Positions 520 to 30,100 of a stretch of 64,000 nucleotides of DNA are shown piece by piece. The notes below the pieces were generated by a model that saw only the letters and a list, made by a program, of their open reading frames with translations, ran no database searches and was not told the origin of the DNA. Source of the stretch: an uncultured Colwellia sp. (GTDB lineage Bacteria > Pseudomonadota > Gammaproteobacteria > Enterobacterales > Alteromonadaceae); NCBI GenBank assembly GCA_913058395.1, contig CAJXQI010000002.1, forward strand, positions 1 to 64,000, written 5' to 3'. Both the position numbers and the translations under genes were made by a program. The first letter of the stretch is position 1; every line of letters starts with the position of its first letter.

Positions 520-1149
520 TTAGGCTTCAGTTTGCCTTACTAAAATTGACACCCAATTAAAATAATCAGAGTTATGAATATCGATTTTAACTAACTCTTT
601 ATCTTTATGCGTTATCTTAAAAACCCCTTGTGCCTCAGGGAAGTAGATATCTATTTCAGAAGGGTAATTCCATTCTTCATTATATTCATCAAGAATGGAC
701 ATTAGTTGAGCATCACATCCATCAGGAAACTCAGAAGTTATTTTATTGGTAGCCATTAAATATAACTCTACTATATCTAAATATTCTTCTGCCTCTATCT
801 CACTAGGCAAGTGATAATCATGTTCTACTGTATTTCTAAATTTATTTATTCTGCGAATAATATTAGGAGCAGCAATACCACATTGCCCTAAGAAGTCTAA
901 TTTACTTGGGAAGTTATCTCTTTTTTTTATGTGGTTCCAACCAAATGCTGTAGCAAGTGCCTCAACTCTTAAATGCAACGCTTTTTTTGCATTAGACACT
1001 GCATTTACAAAATTTCGGTCGCATTTTTCTTGATCAAAATCTGACTTAGCAAACTCTAAATATGTTGATTCCCAAATATGCTCAACGGGATATTCAATTT
1101 GCTTATTCCCTGTAATGTAATACCACTCTAAAAATTTAGGACTATACAC
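520..1149 (-). CDS. HEPN-motif protein (possible Abi-like RNase)
   Basis: Contains an Rx4H motif (R-NTVE-H) inside a predicted helical region, as in HEPN domains; stand-alone gene between terminators. Confidence 0.4.
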   Translation of the reverse strand: MYSPKFLEWYYITGNKQIEYPVEHIWESTYLEFAKSDFDQEKCDRNFVNAVSNAKKALHLRVEALATAFGWNHIKKRDNFPSKLDFLGQCGIAAPNIIRRINKFRNTVEHDYHLPSEIEAEEYLDIVELYLMATNKITSEFPDGCDAQLMSILDEYNEEWNYPSEIDIYFPEAQGVFKITHKDKELVKIDIHNSDYFNWVSILVRQTEA

Positions 1150-2008: not shown

Positions 2009-3322
2009 TTACTTTTTAAGCTTATCTTTCTTGACTAAAGTAGGTAAGATATCCTTAGAAATGTTTTCCTTTCGCTTTTGAATATGATTAATTTGCTTAT
2101 TTTTAGTTTGATCTAAGTTGACTTGGTTTAAATCATTTTGATGCAATGAGTAACCTACAAATATTATGTAGAGAAGCGCCATAAAACAAATTGACCACAC
2201 AGCTTTCTTCATAAAGCTAGAGTTTTTCTTAGCCTTATCTAATAAGACAATTAATTCATCATTAGTGTTCTTAGCCTGTTTTCTTATTTCGACATCTTCA
2301 TTTAAAATATCATACCGTTTAAATTCTGAATCAACTTGCTTCTTAATATGCTCAAATGTTGCATGATGAACACCCAATGATCTATAAACAATTAGAGTGG
2401 TAACTAACATGCCAATAGCAACAGCAATCCCATCGACTACATGGTTAATTTTCATTACTGCACCAATAACAATTAATGCACCGGGGATAGCAAGAGCCTT
2501 ATTTTGAGCGCTTGAAATGATCTCATTTATTTTAGATGTATAGGTTAAGTCTTGCTCATTAATCTCGTGCAAAACTTTATTTATGCTAAAGCGTTTTACG
2601 AAAAGTTCATAGTGCTCTACATAGCGCTTATGGAAATGGGGAATTGAGTAAATAAATTTTTTGAATATTTCAGTTTCACTATGGCAAACCGATATCAGCT
2701 CATGGAAAGCGGAACGCATAACTGACTTTCTTTCCGAGTCTTGGCTATCTCCAAGCTGAATTAAATTGCTTAACTTGTTAACTAAGGCAATTTGTTCTTC
2801 AATATCCTCAATGATTACAATATCTTTCCAACTAATAGATGGCTTGAATTCATACTTAGCTACTCCATCATCTGCTTCAATAATAAATAACAGTTTTCTA
2901 GAGCCTTTTGCCGTTCCTTGCTGTGGTTCACAATGATCCGCTAATTTTGGAAGTAACTGCCTTACCGTACAGAACAACACCAGAGATTGTTGATATTTAG
3001 TCTTATCAAAACTCGAATCTTTAGACTCAATAACATAAAAATATTCAGGTAATTTTGATGAATTTGAAACAGAAGAAAATAACTCTTCCCATGATTCGTA
3101 AACAGGACTTCTACTGGCCCAATTTGCTGCATTTAGTGAGAGAAATATTTTTTCATTTCTAACAGTTCTTGCTTCGTCAAACTCATAACCGACTGCTTCT
3201 AAAATAGTTTGAATTTCAGGTTTTATCTTAGGGTCAAGCTGAAGAGTTAACTCTCTATCTTGAACAGAAAAATCATTGTCATTTAATAAGTTTAGAAAAG
3301 CTTGAAACGATGCTTTATTCAT
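2009..3322 (-). CDS. multi-TM membrane protein of unknown function (second gene of two-gene operon)
   Basis: 437 aa ORF; two adjacent TM helices around aa 270-310 and a third near the C-terminus; 8-nt overlap with upstream gene. Confidence 0.6.
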   Translation of the reverse strand: MNKASFQAFLNLLNDNDFSVQDRELTLQLDPKIKPEIQTILEAVGYEFDEARTVRNEKIFLSLNAANWASRSPVYESWEELFSSVSNSSKLPEYFYVIESKDSSFDKTKYQQSLVLFCTVRQLLPKLADHCEPQQGTAKGSRKLLFIIEADDGVAKYEFKPSISWKDIVIIEDIEEQIALVNKLSNLIQLGDSQDSERKSVMRSAFHELISVCHSETEIFKKFIYSIPHFHKRYVEHYELFVKRFSINKVLHEINEQDLTYTSKINEIISSAQNKALAIPGALIVIGAVMKINHVVDGIAVAIGMLVTTLIVYRSLGVHHATFEHIKKQVDSEFKRYDILNEDVEIRKQAKNTNDELIVLLDKAKKNSSFMKKAVWSICFMALLYIIFVGYSLHQNDLNQVNLDQTKNKQINHIQKRKENISKDILPTLVKKDKLKK

Positions 3323-4559
3323 TTTCCATATTTGCAGATGCGAGTTTTTCTAACTCTTTTTTCTGCTCCTTGTTATCAATTAAAAAGGTTAATCTACCAT
3401 CTTCATATTCAACCTTACTGCCAGTGCCAACACATCCTATTTCTTTGCGTAAAATCTTTGCCGTATAACTCTTATCTCCAGCAAAAACTTCAATTAGTTT
3501 CCCTGCTTTCACACTATTTATAGTAGGTTCAATATGGTGGTTGATTTCATAACCATTATCATTAATAAATCCTTCAAAAGTTCCCTTTAATGGGGAGTCA
3601 TCAGGTAATAATCCATCTACAGTATTGCAGAGAGTTGATAATGAGATTGCCTTACCGTCCTTTTGTGCTTTTTCGAGTAATGTATCGACTTTTGCTGTCG
3701 CATCCATATAGAAATCATTTGCTAGTTTATATTTATCTTGGTAGTCACTTACAGCTTTTCTAAATTGCTTAATCGAGTGTGCATTATCTGCGTTGTTTTC
3801 ATCGCAACCAAAAGCAACCTTAAAGAACTCACCAGTAGACGTGCCTTTAATAAACTTTAAGTAAGTTTCTTCATCAGGTGTTTCAGGATAAACTTCATCA
3901 AATAAACCCAAATCAAAGAGGGCTGCTTGCCTCATAGCGTCAAGGTTTAAATGACTTGAATCTTTGGGCAATAGAGTAAACTCATCAAAATCAAATCCTT
4001 CTTTCTTAGTAACCCATATGGCCATAAGCCTGCCTAAATCGTCTTGCTCTTGATTTTTATAATGCATGAAGACAATATTACCGCCACCCACTTTATGCAC
4101 TCCGACCTCTTTTGCTGCTGCTACGAGAGAATCCATAAACTTCTTAACCAAAGATGTAAAGTTAATCTTTTTATTTATATAGTTATTTAAAATATTGGGT
4201 GCTGAATCTAAAGAATCATCCTGAGTAAAGTAGCTATGAAATTTGTTCTTATTTTTAAACTTCCGCTCTACCTCAGTAATTAATTTGAAACTTACTTGAT
4301 CATTTTCAGGCCAAAGCTCACCTTCTTTCACTTCAAGTTTAGAGCTTCCTTGTTGAGTAATAAATTGAGTTGTCATAGCTGCTACGGCTATTAATTCTGG
4401 CCGTTCTATATTTTCCAGCTCAATACAACGAGGGCACTCATCTAAAGATTCTTCATATGAAAAATCACACTCAACACAACTAAGCATAAATGCTCCTTTA
4501 ATCCTTATATCATTTATGCTCGATTTGAATACAAACCTGTTATATAAACAATACGCCAA
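3315..4559 (-). CDS. zinc-ribbon protein of unknown function (weak resemblance to NA37/YejK nucleoid-associated family)
   Basis: CxxC...CxxC near the N-terminus (CVECDF..CPRC); GGxIVFxHYK segment recalls the YejK family from memory only. Confidence 0.5.
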   Translation of the reverse strand: MAYCLYNRFVFKSSINDIRIKGAFMLSCVECDFSYEESLDECPRCIELENIERPELIAVAAMTTQFITQQGSSKLEVKEGELWPENDQVSFKLITEVERKFKNKNKFHSYFTQDDSLDSAPNILNNYINKKINFTSLVKKFMDSLVAAAKEVGVHKVGGGNIVFMHYKNQEQDDLGRLMAIWVTKKEGFDFDEFTLLPKDSSHLNLDAMRQAALFDLGLFDEVYPETPDEETYLKFIKGTSTGEFFKVAFGCDENNADNAHSIKQFRKAVSDYQDKYKLANDFYMDATAKVDTLLEKAQKDGKAISLSTLCNTVDGLLPDDSPLKGTFEGFINDNGYEINHHIEPTINSVKAGKLIEVFAGDKSYTAKILRKEIGCVGTGSKVEYEDGRLTFLIDNKEQKKELEKLASANMENE

Positions 4560-5104: not shown

Positions 5105-5662
5105 CTAAGCAAAGTCCTCAAAATAAATGGAAATATTCTGATCTAGTTCTTTTAGGACAAAAAGCATAAAAATAGAATGCTTTAATAGGCTTGATGTACG
5201 ATTTAAGTCACACCAAGTTTTATCACCATACTTTCCACCATGAAATAAGTTATTTCTAACTAGCTTAACTGAATCAATAACCCTTTTGAGCGAGGGGGAA
5301 TTGAGATCTATAGTTTGCTCTGTCCAGTGTGTTTTAATCTCTTTTACATCACTCTCAGTAACGTAGAATATTTTTTGATTGTTAGGGGCTGTTTCAGGAT
5401 CAGTAAGATAACAGTAGCTATTGCTGCACTTTGCGGTAACAGAAAATTTACTTTTGTTGGCTTTTAAAAATGCATCCCAATCAGGCTCAGCATTTTTACC
5501 TTCTTCTCTTTTTTTTATATAACCCCCTTCTTTTAAAGCAAATTCAAATCTAGAAAAAACAACAAAAAACTTGAATATTTCTTTGCGAAGTTCATCTTGT
5601 TCCCCCCTTTCAAACGAAAATATTTCAAACATCTTTGACATGAAATTTGTTAATGAAATCAT
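5105..5662 (-). CDS. HEPN-motif protein (Rx4H: R-NNLF-H)
   Basis: 185 aa ORF with a C-terminal VRNNLFHGG motif typical of HEPN RNase domains; isolated between terminators. Confidence 0.4.
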   Translation of the reverse strand: MISLTNFMSKMFEIFSFERGEQDELRKEIFKFFVVFSRFEFALKEGGYIKKREEGKNAEPDWDAFLKANKSKFSVTAKCSNSYCYLTDPETAPNNQKIFYVTESDVKEIKTHWTEQTIDLNSPSLKRVIDSVKLVRNNLFHGGKYGDKTWCDLNRTSSLLKHSIFMLFVLKELDQNISIYFEDFA

Positions 5663-5835: not shown

Positions 5836-5853
5836 AAGCCCCTCGCGGGGCTA
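5836..5853 (-). terminator. rho-independent terminator downstream of darTG operon (AGCCCCGCGAGGGGCT followed by a T-run on the minus strand)
   Basis: Hairpin seen in sequence. Confidence 0.5.
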
Positions 5854-5898: not shown

Positions 5899-7029
5899 TT
5901 AATCAAGTTTAACGGTATTCCCTTCCACATCAATCTTTACTGCTGAAATTTTTTCAATAGCTAATATATCTTTCTCTGATAAGGCAGGGGTGTCTGTATA
6001 ATAAAATTTTGAGTGAGATTTCTTGATATATTTTGCCTGTTTTGACACCCATTCTAATCGACTTGTTGTAAAAATTGCCTTATTAGTTAGGAATAAACGG
6101 CTTAATACGGAGGGTATGTAAGCCTTTCTATCGAATGACTCAAAAGGATTACCAATAGAAAGCAGTGTCAATCTAGTTAAATTTTCACTTAAATTTGCTT
6201 TTTGAGCGGATTTAAAAATACCAGTAGGCATGAAAACACCTACAGTAATCCCTTTCTTTGATGCATCAAATGCCATTTTTTTATCAAAAACAGAGCTACC
6301 AAAGAGAATACTAAGGCGATGCTCTTCGCAATAATTAACCAGTTTTTTCACTAACTCAATCTCCTCCAAACTTGGTTTGGAGCTTGAAATTAGTGAGATA
6401 TCATAACTTTCAACACTAATATTATTCGAATTAAATAAATACAGTTCTTTTTCTGTAAACAATTTCAATTGTTCAGGGTAATCCGCTGATTTACTGGATA
6501 TAGTCTTAATTCTTTCTTGAGCTAATAAACTAATATTCTCAATTGTATTAGTCTCAACTTTACCAGCCTTTTTCGAACTATTTGGTTCAAACACAAGAAT
6601 TTTATGCTGTGAATCTGCAAGGTAATTTTCAATAAGTTCTTTAACCCTTATCCAATCTAGACCTCCGTGCCCACAACCCAAAGCGGGTAAAGTAATTGTA
6701 GAATAGCTCTTTTTGTCTAGATACTCAGATAGCCATTTAAGTCCATTTTCAACATACTCATACTCAGATGGTTTTCTCCAATGATTTTTAGTCGGAAAGT
6801 TAATAATCTCAACTCCCTTAGTAAACATATCATCATTTTTCCATACTGAAGGTACGCCCGGCCTAATCAGGCCCAACTTACATTCTTTTGCATACTCTTT
6901 AAACATTTCAGGGTATTTATTTTTAAAAGCTAGAGCAACACCTGCTCCCATAACACCTACACAATTTACGGTATTGACCCTTATGTCTGCATCATACTCA
7001 AAAAAATCTCCTTTAACGAACTCTAGCAT
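5899..7029 (-). CDS. darG: DarG antitoxin: N-terminal macrodomain (DNA ADP-ribosylglycohydrolase) plus C-terminal DarT-binding region
   Basis: N-terminus VNTVNCVGVMGAGVALAFKNKYPEMF and LPALGCGHGGLDW match the DarG/TARG1-type macrodomain signature; 7-nt overlap with upstream darT-like gene. Confidence 0.8.
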   Translation of the reverse strand: MLEFVKGDFFEYDADIRVNTVNCVGVMGAGVALAFKNKYPEMFKEYAKECKLGLIRPGVPSVWKNDDMFTKGVEIINFPTKNHWRKPSEYEYVENGLKWLSEYLDKKSYSTITLPALGCGHGGLDWIRVKELIENYLADSQHKILVFEPNSSKKAGKVETNTIENISLLAQERIKTISSKSADYPEQLKLFTEKELYLFNSNNISVESYDISLISSSKPSLEEIELVKKLVNYCEEHRLSILFGSSVFDKKMAFDASKKGITVGVFMPTGIFKSAQKANLSENLTRLTLLSIGNPFESFDRKAYIPSVLSRLFLTNKAIFTTSRLEWVSKQAKYIKKSHSKFYYTDTPALSEKDILAIEKISAVKIDVEGNTVKLD

Positions 7030-8366
7030 GGTTCTTTACACTCTAGTGCATCAATAGCTTTTAACTTTAGTGCTTTGATTTTATGTTCATTCAAAAATAC
7101 CCACATAGGATTTATTGAAATCATATCTGCCTTACCTAATGCTATAATCATATTCAACTCTTCTTCAGATTCAATAATATTAAAAAGTTGTTGTTCACTA
7201 CGTCCTTTAGCAACAATATCCCCAATAAGGTCATCATAAGTTACCAACATTACTATCTTTCTAACTAGCTCACGATCGAGACTACCAATATCTTCAGTGA
7301 GAATTCGTTTTAGCATAGGGAGTGATTTAACAGCGTGATCATTATCTGCACGCTCCATTCCTTTATCTCCCCAACGACTCTTTGGGCCTTTACCTATATC
7401 ATGTAAATAGGCAGACAATAAGACTATTTCTTTATTTTCTTTAGATAAGCTATTATATTCTGGCATTGTCTTTACTGTAGTTGCAACTTTCCGACTATGT
7501 GTTCCAACATCATCAGAGTGAGGCCCATAGCTTGCTTTTAAGCCATCAATATCTCCAAGCTCCTTTATTATAGAAAAATCATTACTAATCGAGTTTATGG
7601 CACTTTTGATATTTTCAAACTTAGTTTGACTCTTAAGGTCCTTACAAATTTCTGAAATAGTTACATCTACATTATGCTTCAAAAATTGGGGGCCTGTAAT
7701 TATGGACTTTTGTCCGCCATCATAAAAATTGATATAATAATGTTCTTGTCCAAATATAATTTTTGGAATTGGCTTGTTTTTAGCTTTAAAAACTTTTATT
7801 ACCTCCTCTTTTATCAATTCATTCCATACAACTAAATGTGCTACAGTTCTCATATCTACAACATTAGGAATCAATAACTCCGCCATTTTCTGATGACGAA
7901 ACTCCTCAGTTGGACAACCCCATTTTTTAGAATCAATTGCCTCCCAGTTTAATGACTGCAATAAAGCAACGTCTTTTGAGTCATAAAAATTAGGAGGGAT
8001 GTCAGTATTAGCTGATGCGTCAGAAAACACAACGCCTTGAATTTTTTCGATTACATCAATTGGAACTGCGAAGTAAATAATAAGGGGCTGGTCGATATTT
8101 TTTTTATTTATGACACCTAATTGCATTGGTGTTTTTTTAGAGAAATAAAAAGGGACATAATCATGAACAACCTTTCCGCTAGAGCAAGGAATAGGCATTG
8201 TACTTCTTCTTCCTTGTATCCTTTCTTCAGCAATATTTTTATGGGAAATATCAAGGTGCTTTTTCTGGTTAGTACACAAAATTCCACTATCAATAATTGA
8301 TTCTAAATTATCAAACAGTGTAAAGTGGTACGCGTATCTTCCTTTTAAATTTTCTGGGATTGTCAT
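7023..8366 (-). CDS. darT: DarT (DUF4433) DNA ADP-ribosyltransferase toxin fused to a C-terminal HD-domain phosphohydrolase
   Basis: YHFTLFDNLESII...HDYVPFYF...AELLIP motifs match DarT/DUF4433; C-terminal H...LHDIGKG...D motifs match the HD domain; 447 aa versus about 220 aa for a typical DarT. Confidence 0.8.
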   Translation of the reverse strand: MTIPENLKGRYAYHFTLFDNLESIIDSGILCTNQKKHLDISHKNIAEERIQGRRSTMPIPCSSGKVVHDYVPFYFSKKTPMQLGVINKKNIDQPLIIYFAVPIDVIEKIQGVVFSDASANTDIPPNFYDSKDVALLQSLNWEAIDSKKWGCPTEEFRHQKMAELLIPNVVDMRTVAHLVVWNELIKEEVIKVFKAKNKPIPKIIFGQEHYYINFYDGGQKSIITGPQFLKHNVDVTISEICKDLKSQTKFENIKSAINSISNDFSIIKELGDIDGLKASYGPHSDDVGTHSRKVATTVKTMPEYNSLSKENKEIVLLSAYLHDIGKGPKSRWGDKGMERADNDHAVKSLPMLKRILTEDIGSLDRELVRKIVMLVTYDDLIGDIVAKGRSEQQLFNIIESEEELNMIIALGKADMISINPMWVFLNEHKIKALKLKAIDALECKEPC

Positions 8367-8462
8367 ATTAGATCCTTTATATTATGTGATTGATGAGAAA
8401 ATCATCCCTAAGAACTTACTATGGACCAAGCTTGGTAATGTCCGCTCCATAATCAACTTTTA

Positions 8463-9239
8463 CTAACCTATTTCAACTACATTTCTGCATTTTGGAAACG
8501 CACTACATCCCCAAAATTCATTGCCTGCGTTTTTACCTTTAGTGGGTTTTCGCAACACCATATCGGAACTGCACTTTGAGCAAGCTTTTATATCAAATTT
8601 TTCTTCTATAATTTTTCGTACATGCTTAACGTGCTGTCGGTTAGTTTTATAGCTACGCTCTAACCTGCCGCTTTCAATCTGTTCAATAACACTTGTAAGT
8701 TCTTCTGTATTAAAAATAATGTCTATTTTACTTTTGATATATTCAATACCACCGCGAGCAAACCTTACATTCTCAGGCATTTTAGTTTTAAAAGTACTAT
8801 CGCCAATAAATATAATGACTGAGAATATACTATCATTCTTTGCGTTCAAACAAGCTTCTAACGTTTTGACATGCTTATAGTTTTGGTGAAGTGGGTTTTG
8901 AAATTTAGACTTGTGCTTAAAGATTTGTTGCGTCCATTGCTTTTGATTTTCACTACCAAAGATCCAGCCTTTCATGTTTTTGGTTTCAACTACGAAAATT
9001 CCGTATTTAGATACGACTATATGGTCTATCTGAGTTGTTCCATCATCAGTCGGTAATGTTACATTCTTAATGAGGTGATAATCATTTTTGTCTAAGAAAA
9101 ACTTAATGAGCAAGTTTACTTGCCACTCACCCATTACACCTTTAAACCATGCTGACTTGATGATGACAGCAAATATGAAGATCGGTATTAAATACCAAGC
9201 GGCACTGAACATCATGTTGAGATACATTGTTAAATCCAT
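8463..9239 (-). CDS. NERD-domain nuclease-like protein with N-terminal TM helix and C-terminal topoisomerase-type C4 zinc finger
   Basis: IDHIVVSKYGIFVVETKN (NERD core); CSKCSSDMV...WGCSAFPKC (zf-C4_Topoisom). Confidence 0.8.
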   Translation of the reverse strand: MDLTMYLNMMFSAAWYLIPIFIFAVIIKSAWFKGVMGEWQVNLLIKFFLDKNDYHLIKNVTLPTDDGTTQIDHIVVSKYGIFVVETKNMKGWIFGSENQKQWTQQIFKHKSKFQNPLHQNYKHVKTLEACLNAKNDSIFSVIIFIGDSTFKTKMPENVRFARGGIEYIKSKIDIIFNTEELTSVIEQIESGRLERSYKTNRQHVKHVRKIIEEKFDIKACSKCSSDMVLRKPTKGKNAGNEFWGCSAFPKCRNVVEIG

Positions 9240-9725
9240 TTATAACTTAATCCCTATCTAAAGTTACTGCTTAACTTTTCCCTTGATTCTTACTAGCCAA
9301 TCATATAACAACACACGATGTAATATCGACAATTAAATCAACCATCTAAAATTTTGTTTCGTATTGAAATCAAAGACAGAAATACTGACCCTAAAGTAAT
9401 TTATTTAACCTATCAAAAATAAACAAAATTGGTTATCCCATACTTTCCGACCAATATAAGAACAATTTTGTATACTATTTAGGAGTAAAAACGCTTTATC
9501 CATATCATAAAGAAATTATAAAAAGCTAATTAATAAAGATTTTAATAATTCTTGATTTGTAACTTACTACATTGATTGATATTTAATGGCTCAAGATAAT
9601 TTCCATTTTATTAAATATATATTTATTATTAAATTAATTCAGTGACTTACGAGGATTTAAAATTTGACACAATTAGATTATTGAGCTTTTATTTAGTTAT
9701 GATTCTACTGAATAAGAAGTAATTT

Positions 9726-10274
9726 ATGAGAGATGAAAACAATGATGACTACATGACAAGCAAACAACTCTTTCGAGGTTTAATGAGTGCTGTCGAAGAT
9801 GCTTCCAGAAAACGTATTGCTAATTCAATATCAAGAAAATTAGAAAGTTTGGCTATTCTAGGTTATCACACAGGATCTATAGTGCCATTTGGCTACCGTA
9901 TGGTAAAAGTCGATACTGATAACTTTGGAAATATTGTAATAAGGAACAAACTGATAGTTAGTCCGAATGAATCTCTTATTGTAAAAACATTATTTAAATT
10001 GGCAAATGAACTAATTGATCAAGACAAGTTTAGTTACACTGCTATTGCCCTAATACTCAATGACAAGGGGCTACATAGACGAAAATCAATATGGACTCCA
10101 ACAAATGTTAAAAGTACCTTAATAAATACTCGTTATTACGGAGTGACTATCTATGGAGCTAAACGTACTAAGCTCAACTCACATAAAAAACCAATTGAAA
10201 TAGATTGCCTAGCTATCGTTTCAAAACGGTTATTTGAAAAGGTAAACCATTTTATTACTGAACTTCGAATTTAA
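9726..10274 (+). pseudogene. large serine recombinase fragment (recombinase domain only, no catalytic resolvase domain)
   Basis: WTPTNVKSTLINTRYYG recombinase-domain motif; the ORF lacks the N-terminal S-recombinase catalytic domain. Confidence 0.55.
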
Positions 10275-29816: not shown

Positions 29817-29888
29817 GTACTTATTAGTTCTTGGCGTTTATCAAACATTGGTACTAACTACTTACTAACGTTTCATTACATATCATCG

Positions 29889-29959
29889 TATAAAGGGTGG
29901 GAATTGAACCCACAACAAACGGGTTAAAGCCGCTGCTCTACCAATTGAGCTACCTGTAT
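29889..29959 (-). ncRNA. tRNA-like element 1 (71 nt, no CCA, acceptor mismatch, anticodon loop reads UUA if 7-nt)
   Basis: Folds by eye: acceptor ATACAGG/CCTTTAT (1 mismatch), D-arm GCTC-AATTGGTA-GAGC, T-arm GTGGG-TTCAATT-CCCAC; conserved U8 A9 G18G19 TTC. Confidence 0.5.
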
Positions 29960-30027
29960 TTAAGGAAGGATTCGAACCTTCGCCCAACAGCACGAAGCTG
30001 TTGCTCTATCCTCTGAGCTACTTAAAT
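29957..30027 (-). ncRNA. tRNA-like element 2 (71 nt, no CCA, 5-nt anticodon loop or 4-bp stem with anticodon UCG)
   Basis: Perfect acceptor ATTTAAG/CTTAAAT, D-arm GCTC-AGAGGATA-GAGC, anticodon arm ACAGC-TTCGT-GCTGT, T-arm GAAGG-TTCGAAT-CCTTC. Confidence 0.5.
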
Positions 30028-30029
30028 AG

Positions 30030-30100
30030 TTATTAAGATGGGAATCGAACCCATGACTGACGAAATCAATTCGCTGCTCTACCTACTGAGCTACTTAATA
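30030..30100 (-). ncRNA. tRNA-like element 3 (71 nt, no CCA, shortened anticodon loop)
   Basis: Perfect acceptor TATTAAG/CTTAATA, D-arm GCTC-AGTAGGTA-GAGC, anticodon arm GCGAA-TTGAT-TTCGT, T-arm ATGGG-TTCGATT-CCCAT. Confidence 0.5.

Follow-up and report, generated by a model that had tools for sequence, protein, structure and literature searches.

What could an HD phosphohydrolase be doing on a toxin of the DarT family, whose known members ADP-ribosylate DNA? This question is raised by two overlapping genes located at positions 5,899 to 8,366 of a 64,000-nucleotide stretch of DNA from an uncultured Colwellia sp. (assembly GCA_913058395.1, contig CAJXQI010000002.1, positions 1 to 64,000), called here the window. 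An earlier note, made from the sequence alone, had read them as a DarTG toxin–antitoxin and defence module in which DarT is extended by a C-terminal HD domain. DarTG figures in the literature as a model for reversible DNA ADP-ribosylation, a phage defence, a proposed drug target in Mycobacterium tuberculosis and a new genome-editing tool. Judging from the sequences, the pair is very probably a DarTG-type module that is active and whose HD domain is functional. The whole is best explained as a distinct and widespread DarTG subtype, in which a DarT2-like toxin and an HD effector face a macrodomain–DprA-like antitoxin, an explanation that we believe slightly more than we doubt.

The Gene Pair

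The features of the locus are the following (ORF, open reading frame; aa, amino acids; nt, nucleotides; ssDNA, single-stranded DNA):

7023..8366, minus: darT-HD toxin gene, 447 aa plus stop codon in one uninterrupted ORF (ORF list; Pfam DarT and HD)
7722..8366, minus: DarT (ssDNA ADP-ribosyltransferase) domain, aa 1-215 (PF14487); catalytic candidates H14, R53/R54, H68-D69-Y70 and E163
7026..7721, minus: HD phosphohydrolase module, aa ~216-447, with the Pfam HD core at aa 288-372 (nt 7251-7505); ligand or catalytic candidates H283, H290, H322-D323, K326, H344, D378-D379, R389 and D414
5899..7029, minus: antitoxin gene (DarG-like), 376 aa (ORF list; PADLOC DarG; NCBIfam NF048014)
6580..7029, minus: DarG-type macrodomain (ADP-ribosylglycohydrolase), aa 1-150 (PF01661; K81 in FPTKNHWR conserved)
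5902..6579, minus: antitoxin C-terminal domain, DprA-like (SLOG-type Rossmannoid), aa 151-376 (PF02481, TIGR00732, PADLOC ShosA)
5837..5852, minus: intrinsic-terminator-like hairpin and T-run, 3' of the antitoxin gene (consensus match only)
8449..8476, minus: candidate sigma-70 promoter TTGAAA-16-GATTAT, ~85 nt 5' of the darT-HD start

Both genes lie on the minus strand, which the earlier note had not stated, in the order toxin then antitoxin, and the antitoxin start shares 7 nt with the darT-HD stop. The overlap of 7023..8366 and 5899..7029 had been correctly seen, and so had the DarT hallmarks of the upstream gene: YAYHFTLFDNL, HDYVPFYF and MAELL all occur in the 447-aa translation, in agreement with Pfam and PADLOC. 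The HD motif announced for the toxin's C-terminal part is also found there (THSRKV...LHDIGKG...TYDDL), with a Pfam HD match above the gathering score. More generally, the profiles that had been named as checks (Pfam DUF4433, HD and Macro, and PADLOC) recognise all three domains, and both DarT and DarG. The terminator attributed to the operon corresponds to the hairpin AGCCCCGCGAGGGGCT and its T-run, a consensus match at 5852..5837 that starts 47 nt past the darG stop, with a stem of 6 bp including 5 GC pairs and the tail TTTTTGG. On the promoter side, the number of promoter-like sites in the region is not above the shuffled expectation, so that the site at 8449..8476 is a candidate only.

Reality and Spread of the Fusion

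Searching 5.8 billion proteins for the toxin brought up 958 relatives. The best 120 clusters, 410–478 aa long and 47–97% identical, are nearly all annotated with both Pfam domains, and the sources of the best clusters are Vibrio, Alteromonas, Serratia, Aeromonas, Pseudomonas, Enterobacter, Citrobacter, Nitrosomonas and others. A genome scan with one genome per species gave 484 relatives, from which 80 loci were kept for analysis. An uninterrupted DarT-HD ORF is present in 60 of these, belonging to Gamma- and Alphaproteobacteria, Desulfobacterota, Planctomycetota, Bacteroidota, Bacillota, Fibrobacter, Victivallales and Cyanobium. The database search for other DarT-HD fusions that the earlier note had called for thus yields a large set, with full-length homologues (~445 aa) in at least 8 bacterial phyla.

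DarT-HD is a large and old subfamily, annotated in databases only as ‘DarT family protein’. This is the name used by NCBI, which calls the antitoxin a ‘macro domain-containing protein’; PADLOC names the pair DarT and DarG. The architecture had been proposed as undescribed, a statement that stands for the literature but not for the databases, where the fusion is already present and is no rare oddity. Neither the DarT-HD fusion nor the macrodomain–DprA antitoxin is described in the literature searched, which took in Jankevicius 2016, Schuller 2023, an Aravind-lab survey of NAD/ADPr systems and the DarTG papers on Vibrio cholerae, enteropathogenic Escherichia coli (EPEC) and PhiKZ, LeRoux et al. 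2022 and the Aravind ADP-ribosyltransferase review lying outside this search. The V. cholerae paper reports a DarG of 347 aa and the catalytic residue E166, and its system appears not to be of the HD type.

Could the fusion nevertheless be an assembly or frameshift artefact joining two genes? Some database entries are indeed HD-only or DarT-only ORFs. Against this, the best 120 clusters and 60 independent loci show one continuous ORF of ~445 aa, the exact window toxin protein is found on 3 contigs, and the split entries that could be traced are disrupted copies, which leaves next to no chance for an artefact. One such copy lies in a lambdoid prophage region (L084:1698-3041, with lambda P, DinI, LexA-like and Q antiterminator genes). 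This DarT-HD gene is 59% identical in its HD part, and a single in-frame stop at the domain boundary, between GKRK and IVTGP, has led to its annotation as separate DarT and HD proteins; an intact macrodomain–DprA-like gene comes next after the interrupted toxin gene. Another copy was found by following a DNA match to the antitoxin macrodomain (a related macrodomain gene), present in 11 of 5,426 complete E. coli genomes. At the one locus opened among these 11, in E. coli MDR_56 (L082, NZ_CP019903.1 3148915-3153627), the pair sits between icd and an e14-like integrase, and IS50R splits the DarT-HD gene, with a DarT pseudogene on one side and an ‘HD domain-containing protein’ on the other. Disrupted copies of this kind, by in-frame stop or IS50, are common for toxins and support toxicity indirectly. 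Homologous pairs are also found beside repE on an IncF plasmid of Klebsiella pneumoniae and on 14 IMG/VR contigs.

The existence of naturally split DarT and HD genes was considered and rejected. Those HD-only entries that were aligned retain leftover C-terminal DarT sequence; the traced HD-only ORF (P0123, at L084) belongs to the single gene with the in-frame stop, and the split in MDR_56 is due to IS50.

The Two Halves of the Toxin

The Pfam DarT family PF14487 (DUF4433) covers aa 13-204 of the 447-aa protein (E 3.9e-37, 128.4 bits against a gathering score of 22.5), which PADLOC also recognises as DarT (E 1e-40). Among solved structures, the thymidine-specific DarT of Thermus is the nearest in sequence (7omv, E 1.5e-18), whereas similarity to M. 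tuberculosis DarT and to E. coli (C7) DarT1 is marginal (E 0.075). An AlphaFold2 (AF2) model of the full-length toxin was obtained with a predicted local distance difference test (pLDDT) of 92.1 and a predicted template modelling score (pTM) of 0.88, the latter value suggesting a fixed arrangement of the two domains. Foldseek comparison of the N-terminal half of this model gives a template modelling (TM) score of 0.85 (on target) with Thermus DarT, and of 0.64 with DarT1. In the alignment to 7omv, E163 falls at the Glu-to-Ala position (Thermus E160), R53 at Thermus R51 and H14 at the equivalent position. Residues R53, R54, H68, D69 and E163 are 98–100% conserved in 59 homologues, and H14 is conserved in 92% of them.

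At the level of the family, the DarT domain stands apart. It reaches 132.5 bits on the NCBIfam DarT equivalog NF048013, below the cutoff of 150, whereas a canonical short DarT (from locus L065) scores 273.4 bits. This sub-threshold score agrees with a rough neighbour-joining (NJ) tree, in which a single split sets 58 of the 61 DarT domains of the HD type apart from all 29 that lack HD.

The C-terminal half is an HD domain, as had been claimed. Pfam HD PF01966 matches aa 288-372 (E 2.1e-8, 34.9 bits, gathering score 22), HDIG TIGR00277 is also matched (E 8e-6), the module has the all-helical HD fold, and its AF2 model, calculated for aa 217-447 alone, has a pLDDT of 93.5. The H..HD..H..D ligands are invariant. 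In 59 sequences, from at least 8 phyla and with 32–65% identity, H283, H290, H322, D323, K326, H344, D379, R389 and D414 are 98–100% conserved, and position 378 is His in 42 of the 59 and Asp in a gammaproteobacterial clade that includes the window. The HD region is thus as strongly conserved as the DarT region, and the linker is conserved too, G225 and P226 being invariant. An extended ligand set of the type H..HD..H..(H/D)D..D goes with binuclear phosphodiesterases and nucleases rather than with simple, mononuclear phosphatases. The module is probably a catalytically intact, metal-dependent and binuclear HD phosphohydrolase. It is acidic, with a median isoelectric point (pI) of 5.35 and a net charge of -9.

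This HD family is found only as a partner of DarT, as deduced from a profile search of 1.84 billion representative proteins. All 72 clusters detected at E<1e-30 are DarT-HD proteins or fragments, the examined fragments being C-terminal pieces of such fusions, and beyond these the scores drop steeply to generic HD proteins. Besides the plain fusion, the 72 clusters include LRR-DarT-HD (leucine-rich repeat) and Sel1-DarT-HD proteins, as well as variants that are extended at the N terminus or have additional sequence inserted between DarT and HD. The DarT-HD unit is seen behind LRR or Sel1/TPR (tetratricopeptide) repeat arrays in P0162 (932 aa), P0217 (597 aa) and L055:8534-10567; at the last of these loci, from Epulopiscium, no macrodomain gene or DarG is detectable nearby. 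As for a more precise placement, the sequence matches of the module to solved HD proteins all have E>=0.02 and none fixes a subfamily. Larger proteins with distantly related HD domains (P0256 and others) carry only ‘HD’ in Pfam and give no contextual clue, and weak matches to Pfam ‘HD-CE’ in 7 of 17 members (best E 1.7e-3) could not be interpreted, the papers retrieved under that name being unrelated.

A Composite Antitoxin and Its Pairing with the Toxin

The downstream gene had been called a clear DarG, which proves right for one of its halves. The macrodomain, with VNTVNCVGVMGAG and LPALGCGHGGLDW in the translation, is indeed DarG-like, but the C-terminal domain is DprA-like rather than canonical, so that the antitoxin is only half a canonical DarG. 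Pfam Macro PF01661 is matched at aa 18-132 (E 4.6e-17), and the PADLOC DarG match (E 9.5e-60) covers aa 1-199 only. In the PDB, the macrodomain finds the Thermus DarG macrodomain 5m31 (E 5.5e-32) and 5m3i (E 1.2e-31), and the DarG macrodomains of Thermus and M. tuberculosis are matched at E ~1e-31. The FPTKNHWR motif of the window aligns to FPTKKHWR of 5m31, and K81 is conserved in at least 95% of the sequences. The macrodomain is highly conserved among the partners of DarT-HD, and hhalign relates it to that of canonical DarGs with a probability of 100% (E 3e-62). The same profile–profile comparison finds no match between the antitoxin C-terminal domain and the canonical DarG C-terminal domain (probability 0.3%). 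The NCBIfam DarG scores tell a similar story: the window antitoxin reaches 255.3 bits on NF048014, just above the cutoff of 250, its orthologues beside DarT-HD stay at 223–248 bits, and antitoxins beside DarT-HD as a whole score 223–255 bits, essentially over the macrodomain half only and with DprA matches in addition, as compared with 386–488 bits across the whole model for the canonical DarGs beside short DarTs.

The assignment of the C-terminal domain comes from PF02481 (DNA_processg_A), weakly matched at aa 170-285 of the window antitoxin (E 9e-5) and above its gathering score in the L021 orthologue (38.8 against 29.6 bits), from a weak match to TIGR00732 dprA and from PADLOC ShosA (E 2.4e-5). 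The domain is basic (pI 9.2 in the window, median 9.0, net charge +5). It is also poorly conserved, with E223 and S291 as its only invariant polar residues, and looks therefore like a binding domain and not like an enzyme. A glycosidase of the SLOG/LOG type, removing a phosphoribosyl adduct, was given low weight, given this scarcity of invariant residues and the lack of a LOG-type glycine-rich motif.

Pfam DarT, Macro and HD are thus all recognised, whereas the NCBIfam DarT threshold is not reached and the canonical DarG C-terminal domain is missing, which would place the pair in a distinct DarTG subtype and not among canonical DarTG2 systems. The combinations of toxin and antitoxin are distributed as follows over the 80 loci:

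DarT-HD with DprA-like antitoxin C-terminal domain: 48
DarT-HD with canonical antitoxin C-terminal domain: 9
DarT-HD with no antitoxin detected: 2
DarT-HD with antitoxin cut by the contig end: 1
short DarT with canonical antitoxin C-terminal domain: 19
short DarT with DprA-like antitoxin C-terminal domain: 1 (L060)

An antitoxin gene lies directly downstream in 57 of the 60 HD-type loci, and in the window the two genes form a co-oriented, adjacent and overlapping pair, the arrangement of a type II/IV toxin–antitoxin module. The sole sampled locus of the last kind (L060:9989-12215, Candidatus Chloroploca mongolica) combines a DarT without HD (260-aa ORF) with an antitoxin of the DprA-like type (454 aa).

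All 9 loci in which DarT-HD stands with a canonical DarG hold an additional short DarT gene. These triple loci (L017, L020, L027, L028, L038, L040, L044, L054 and L058; for example L017:9998-13047) come from Bacteroidales and Fibrobacter and consist of a darT-HD gene (~453 aa), a short canonical-type darT (205–217 aa) and a canonical darG (~356 aa, NF048014 386 bits). The short DarT shares ~25% identity with the DarT portion of the fused toxin, and the catalytic residues are complete in both toxins, which appear to have one antitoxin in common. A degenerate ADP-ribosyltransferase domain in the DarT-HD of these loci, with the HD module acting on the product of the other DarT, was discarded since all catalytic residues are intact. 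DarT-HD indeed keeps every catalytic residue where the partner differs, in the 9 triple loci as in the LRR- and Sel1-DarT-HD fusions, L055 without detectable DarG included. As the unit persists despite these changes of partner, the function of the HD module seems independent of the DprA-like partner.

A further variation concerns the antitoxin itself. At four loci (L014:11357-15709, L033:5205-9452, L034:11381-15649 and L015:2240-6076; Planctomycetota, Desulfobacterales and Victivallales), the macrodomain–DprA-like antitoxin is fused to a DUF1156 region of ~1,000 aa, which is anti-phage-associated and methyltransferase-like (NF042963, PF06634), giving proteins of 1,278–1,450 aa. H14 is replaced by Q in several of the partner toxins.

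A Possible Mechanism and Its Alternatives

By homology to DarTG2, the antitoxin would strip ADP-ribose from DNA in the uninfected cell and keep the toxin inactive. Upon phage infection, the toxin would be released and would carry out the NAD+-dependent ADP-ribosylation of thymidines in ssDNA of both phage and host; this modification would block replication and lead to abortive infection. The HD module would be the effector part, acting in cis on DNA bound or modified by the DarT domain. As a phosphodiesterase, it could trim the ADP-ribose adduct, for instance to a phosphoribosyl adduct resistant to removal by macrodomains, or it could cut nucleic acid at or near the lesion. Either outcome would make the damage harder to undo by phage-encoded macrodomain or NADAR counter-defences. 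An effector role is favoured because the metal ligands are invariant, because the fusion to DarT is strict and, from its pTM, rigid, because the module persists through changes of antitoxin type or of N-terminal domains, and because it resembles a nucleic-acid-end-processing enzyme. The more specific proposal that its substrate is DarT-bound or ADP-ribosylated DNA is tentative, and we would give it somewhat less than an even chance. If the module does process the adduct or the DNA, it would bring to light a nucleic-acid chemistry so far not described, and a further move in the contest with phages that encode macrodomain and NADAR counter-defences.

A fully specified version would be a two-step DNA toxin. 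DarT would ADP-ribosylate a thymidine in ssDNA, the HD module would convert the adduct into phosphoribosyl-thymidine and AMP or cleave the strand there, the lesion could not be reversed by phage macrodomain or NADAR enzymes, and the DprA/SLOG-like domain would have co-evolved to block the second step by binding the HD module or the ssDNA. Taken with all its details this version is unlikely; if true, it would represent a new way of modifying DNA enzymatically, and a bacterial counterpart, directed at DNA, of the chemistry of Legionella SidE. Several observations weigh against a DNA-directed effector downstream of a DarT2-like activity. The macrodomain, which would be less useful if the adduct quickly became macrodomain-resistant, is kept and highly conserved. 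The HD module has no specific similarity to the SidE phosphodiesterase (PDE) or to the Cas3 HD domain, and its acidity is not expected of a general DNA-binding nuclease. On the DarT side, the NF048013 cutoff is not reached, and the base and sequence specificity of DarT-HD may differ from that of the characterised DarT2.

What else could the HD module do? It might hydrolyse a soluble nucleotide instead of DNA or its adduct, and thus provide a second, independent toxin activity through nucleotide depletion or signal destruction, candidate substrates being deoxynucleoside triphosphates (dNTPs), molecules derived from NAD+ or ADP-ribose, (p)ppGpp/pppGpp, polyphosphate-like compounds and 2',3'-cyclic nucleotides. 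The conserved motif LHDIGKGPKSRW weakly matches dNTPases of the SAMHD1/EF1143 type (9mr6, E 0.02; 2o6i, E 0.085), the HDIG match points the same way, and the acidic charge would suit a small-molecule substrate. On the same side can be counted the CCA-adding enzyme of E. coli, whose HD domain is a 2',3'-cyclic phosphodiesterase, 2'-nucleotidase and phosphatase. Such an activity would however have no obvious need for an obligate fusion, and the family is never seen as an intact stand-alone protein; the module is moreover much smaller than the allosteric dNTPases, and its likeness to specific nucleotide hydrolases stays at the level of the generic HD fold, which makes a soluble substrate rather unlikely. 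A regulatory, sensing or docking role, with the module serving for example as the surface bound by the DprA-like domain or as a sensor of phage-induced nucleotides or metals that releases DarT, would account for the association of the DprA-like domain with the HD fusion (48 of 60 loci, against 1 of 20 short-DarT loci), for the complementary charges of the two domains and for the absence of the canonical DarG C-terminal domain, which binds and blocks DarT in known systems. Yet 8–9 putative metal-binding or catalytic residues, invariant across phyla, would be needless for a pure docking surface, the module is fully conserved in loci without a DprA-like partner (the triple loci and the Sel1 and LRR fusions), and L060 pairs a DprA-like antitoxin with a DarT that has no HD. 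This role is therefore regarded as improbable, and would bear, if real, on how DarTG senses infection.

The biological purpose can be discussed separately, since a module devoted mainly to the addiction or stabilisation of mobile elements, or to growth control, would be compatible with the molecular mechanism favoured here. The pair next to repE on the K. pneumoniae plasmid, and the copies in the lambdoid prophage and in the IMG/VR contigs, speak for such a purpose, and DarTG of M. tuberculosis is reported to control growth (PMC12170906). In the window, on the contrary, the operon is flanked by DS-1 and NERD genes, as is typical of a defence island, and DarTG1 and DarTG2 are both experimentally anti-phage according to the literature. 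A main function other than phage defence thus seems to have little probability.

The Defence-Island Neighbourhood

The setting in a defence island, as described from the outset, is borne out by the genes that flank the operon: DS-1 at 2009..4559 and the NERD (nuclease-related domain) gene at 8463..9239, together with a truncated recombinase, place the operon in such an island. The window itself forms the first 64 kb of a metagenome contig in ENA that is 316,663 bp long. The two-gene DS-1 antiphage system is complete on the minus strand, downstream of the DarT-HD operon. One of its genes encodes a nucleoid-associated, NA37/YejK-like protein (NF053868, 404.7 bits against a cutoff of 330), and its partner scores 375.4 bits on NF053869 (cutoff 315). 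Directly upstream of darT-HD, the gene at 8463..9239 (minus) encodes a 258-aa protein with a NERD domain and a topoisomerase-type C4 zinc ribbon, which weakly matches BREX PglW and MADS6 kinases in their N-terminal part. In the 182-aa ORF at 9726..10274 (plus), a large serine recombinase is represented by its ‘Recombinase’ domain alone, the catalytic resolvase domain being absent. Beside it lies the lowest-GC kilobase of the island (9001-10000, 29%), and the two may be remnants of a decayed integration module at the island border.

Pfam, PADLOC and NCBIfam recognise nothing in two ORFs at 5105-5662 (minus, 185 aa) and 520-1149 (minus, 209 aa). Both carry the motif R-N-x-x-x-H (VRNNLFHGG and FRNTVEHDY, respectively), reminiscent of HEPN RNase active sites, with no profile match behind this likeness. 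Further along, ARAGORN predicts three abutting or overlapping 72-nt tRNAs at 29888-30100 (minus), including a ‘tRNA-Stop’ (anticodon TTA) and a 72-nt tRNA-Ser without the usual long variable arm; Rfam at the gathering score confirms only two of the three, at 29957-30027 and 30030-30100.

Comparison with Known Systems

Several known systems share part of this architecture. A parallel for the toxin as a whole is provided by the Legionella SidE effectors, which combine an ADP-ribosyltransferase and an HD-fold-like phosphodiesterase in one polypeptide. The SidE PDE turns the ADP-ribosyl adduct made by the mono-ADP-ribosyltransferase (mART) domain into a phosphoribosyl adduct. SidE is thus an architectural and mechanistic precedent for a two-step toxin, with a reversed domain order, ubiquitin and not DNA as target, and no specific homology between its PDE and the HD module. 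The Cas3 HD nuclease has a comparable extended motif (H..HD..H..H..D type) and is an ssDNA-directed defence effector; the PADLOC Cas3 matches of the toxin are weak or marginal (E 1.2e-3 to 3e-3), and unlike Cas3, DarT-HD has no helicase partner and an acidic HD module. The C-terminal (body/HD-type) region of class II tRNA nucleotidyltransferases (Aquifex aeolicus, 3WFO-3WFS) shows no detectable sequence similarity to the module and is absent from the profile matches at E<=1, and DarT-HD has no nucleotidyltransferase head domain. For the antitoxin, ShosA/DprA of the Shosta system offers another case of a DprA-like Rossmannoid domain as the antitoxin part of a defence pair; in the present antitoxin, by contrast, this domain is joined to a macrodomain, has DarT-HD as the toxin opposite it and is poorly conserved.

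Among the DarTG systems themselves, DarTG1 (DarT1/NADAR, guanine) likewise associates a DarT-family toxin with an antitoxin that removes ADP-ribose, but this antitoxin is a NADAR protein and not a macrodomain, and the similarity of the toxin to E. coli C7 DarT1 is marginal. DarTG2 (Thermus aquaticus, M. tuberculosis and EPEC; thymidine in ssDNA) is far more similar. The DarT fold and catalytic residues, the DarG-type macrodomain with its conserved catalytic Lys, the detection of DarT and DarG by PADLOC, the overlapping toxin–antitoxin operon and the defence-island location are all common to both. The differences are a toxin twice as long, with a conserved HD hydrolase module, a DarT domain below the NCBIfam equivalog cutoff and separate in the rough NJ tree, and a DprA-like antitoxin C-terminal domain without homology to that of canonical DarG. 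The picture is that of a phylum-spanning branch of DarTG, whose toxin bears a strictly conserved extra hydrolase and whose antitoxin has another second domain, and which current tools and annotations lump together with ordinary DarTG.

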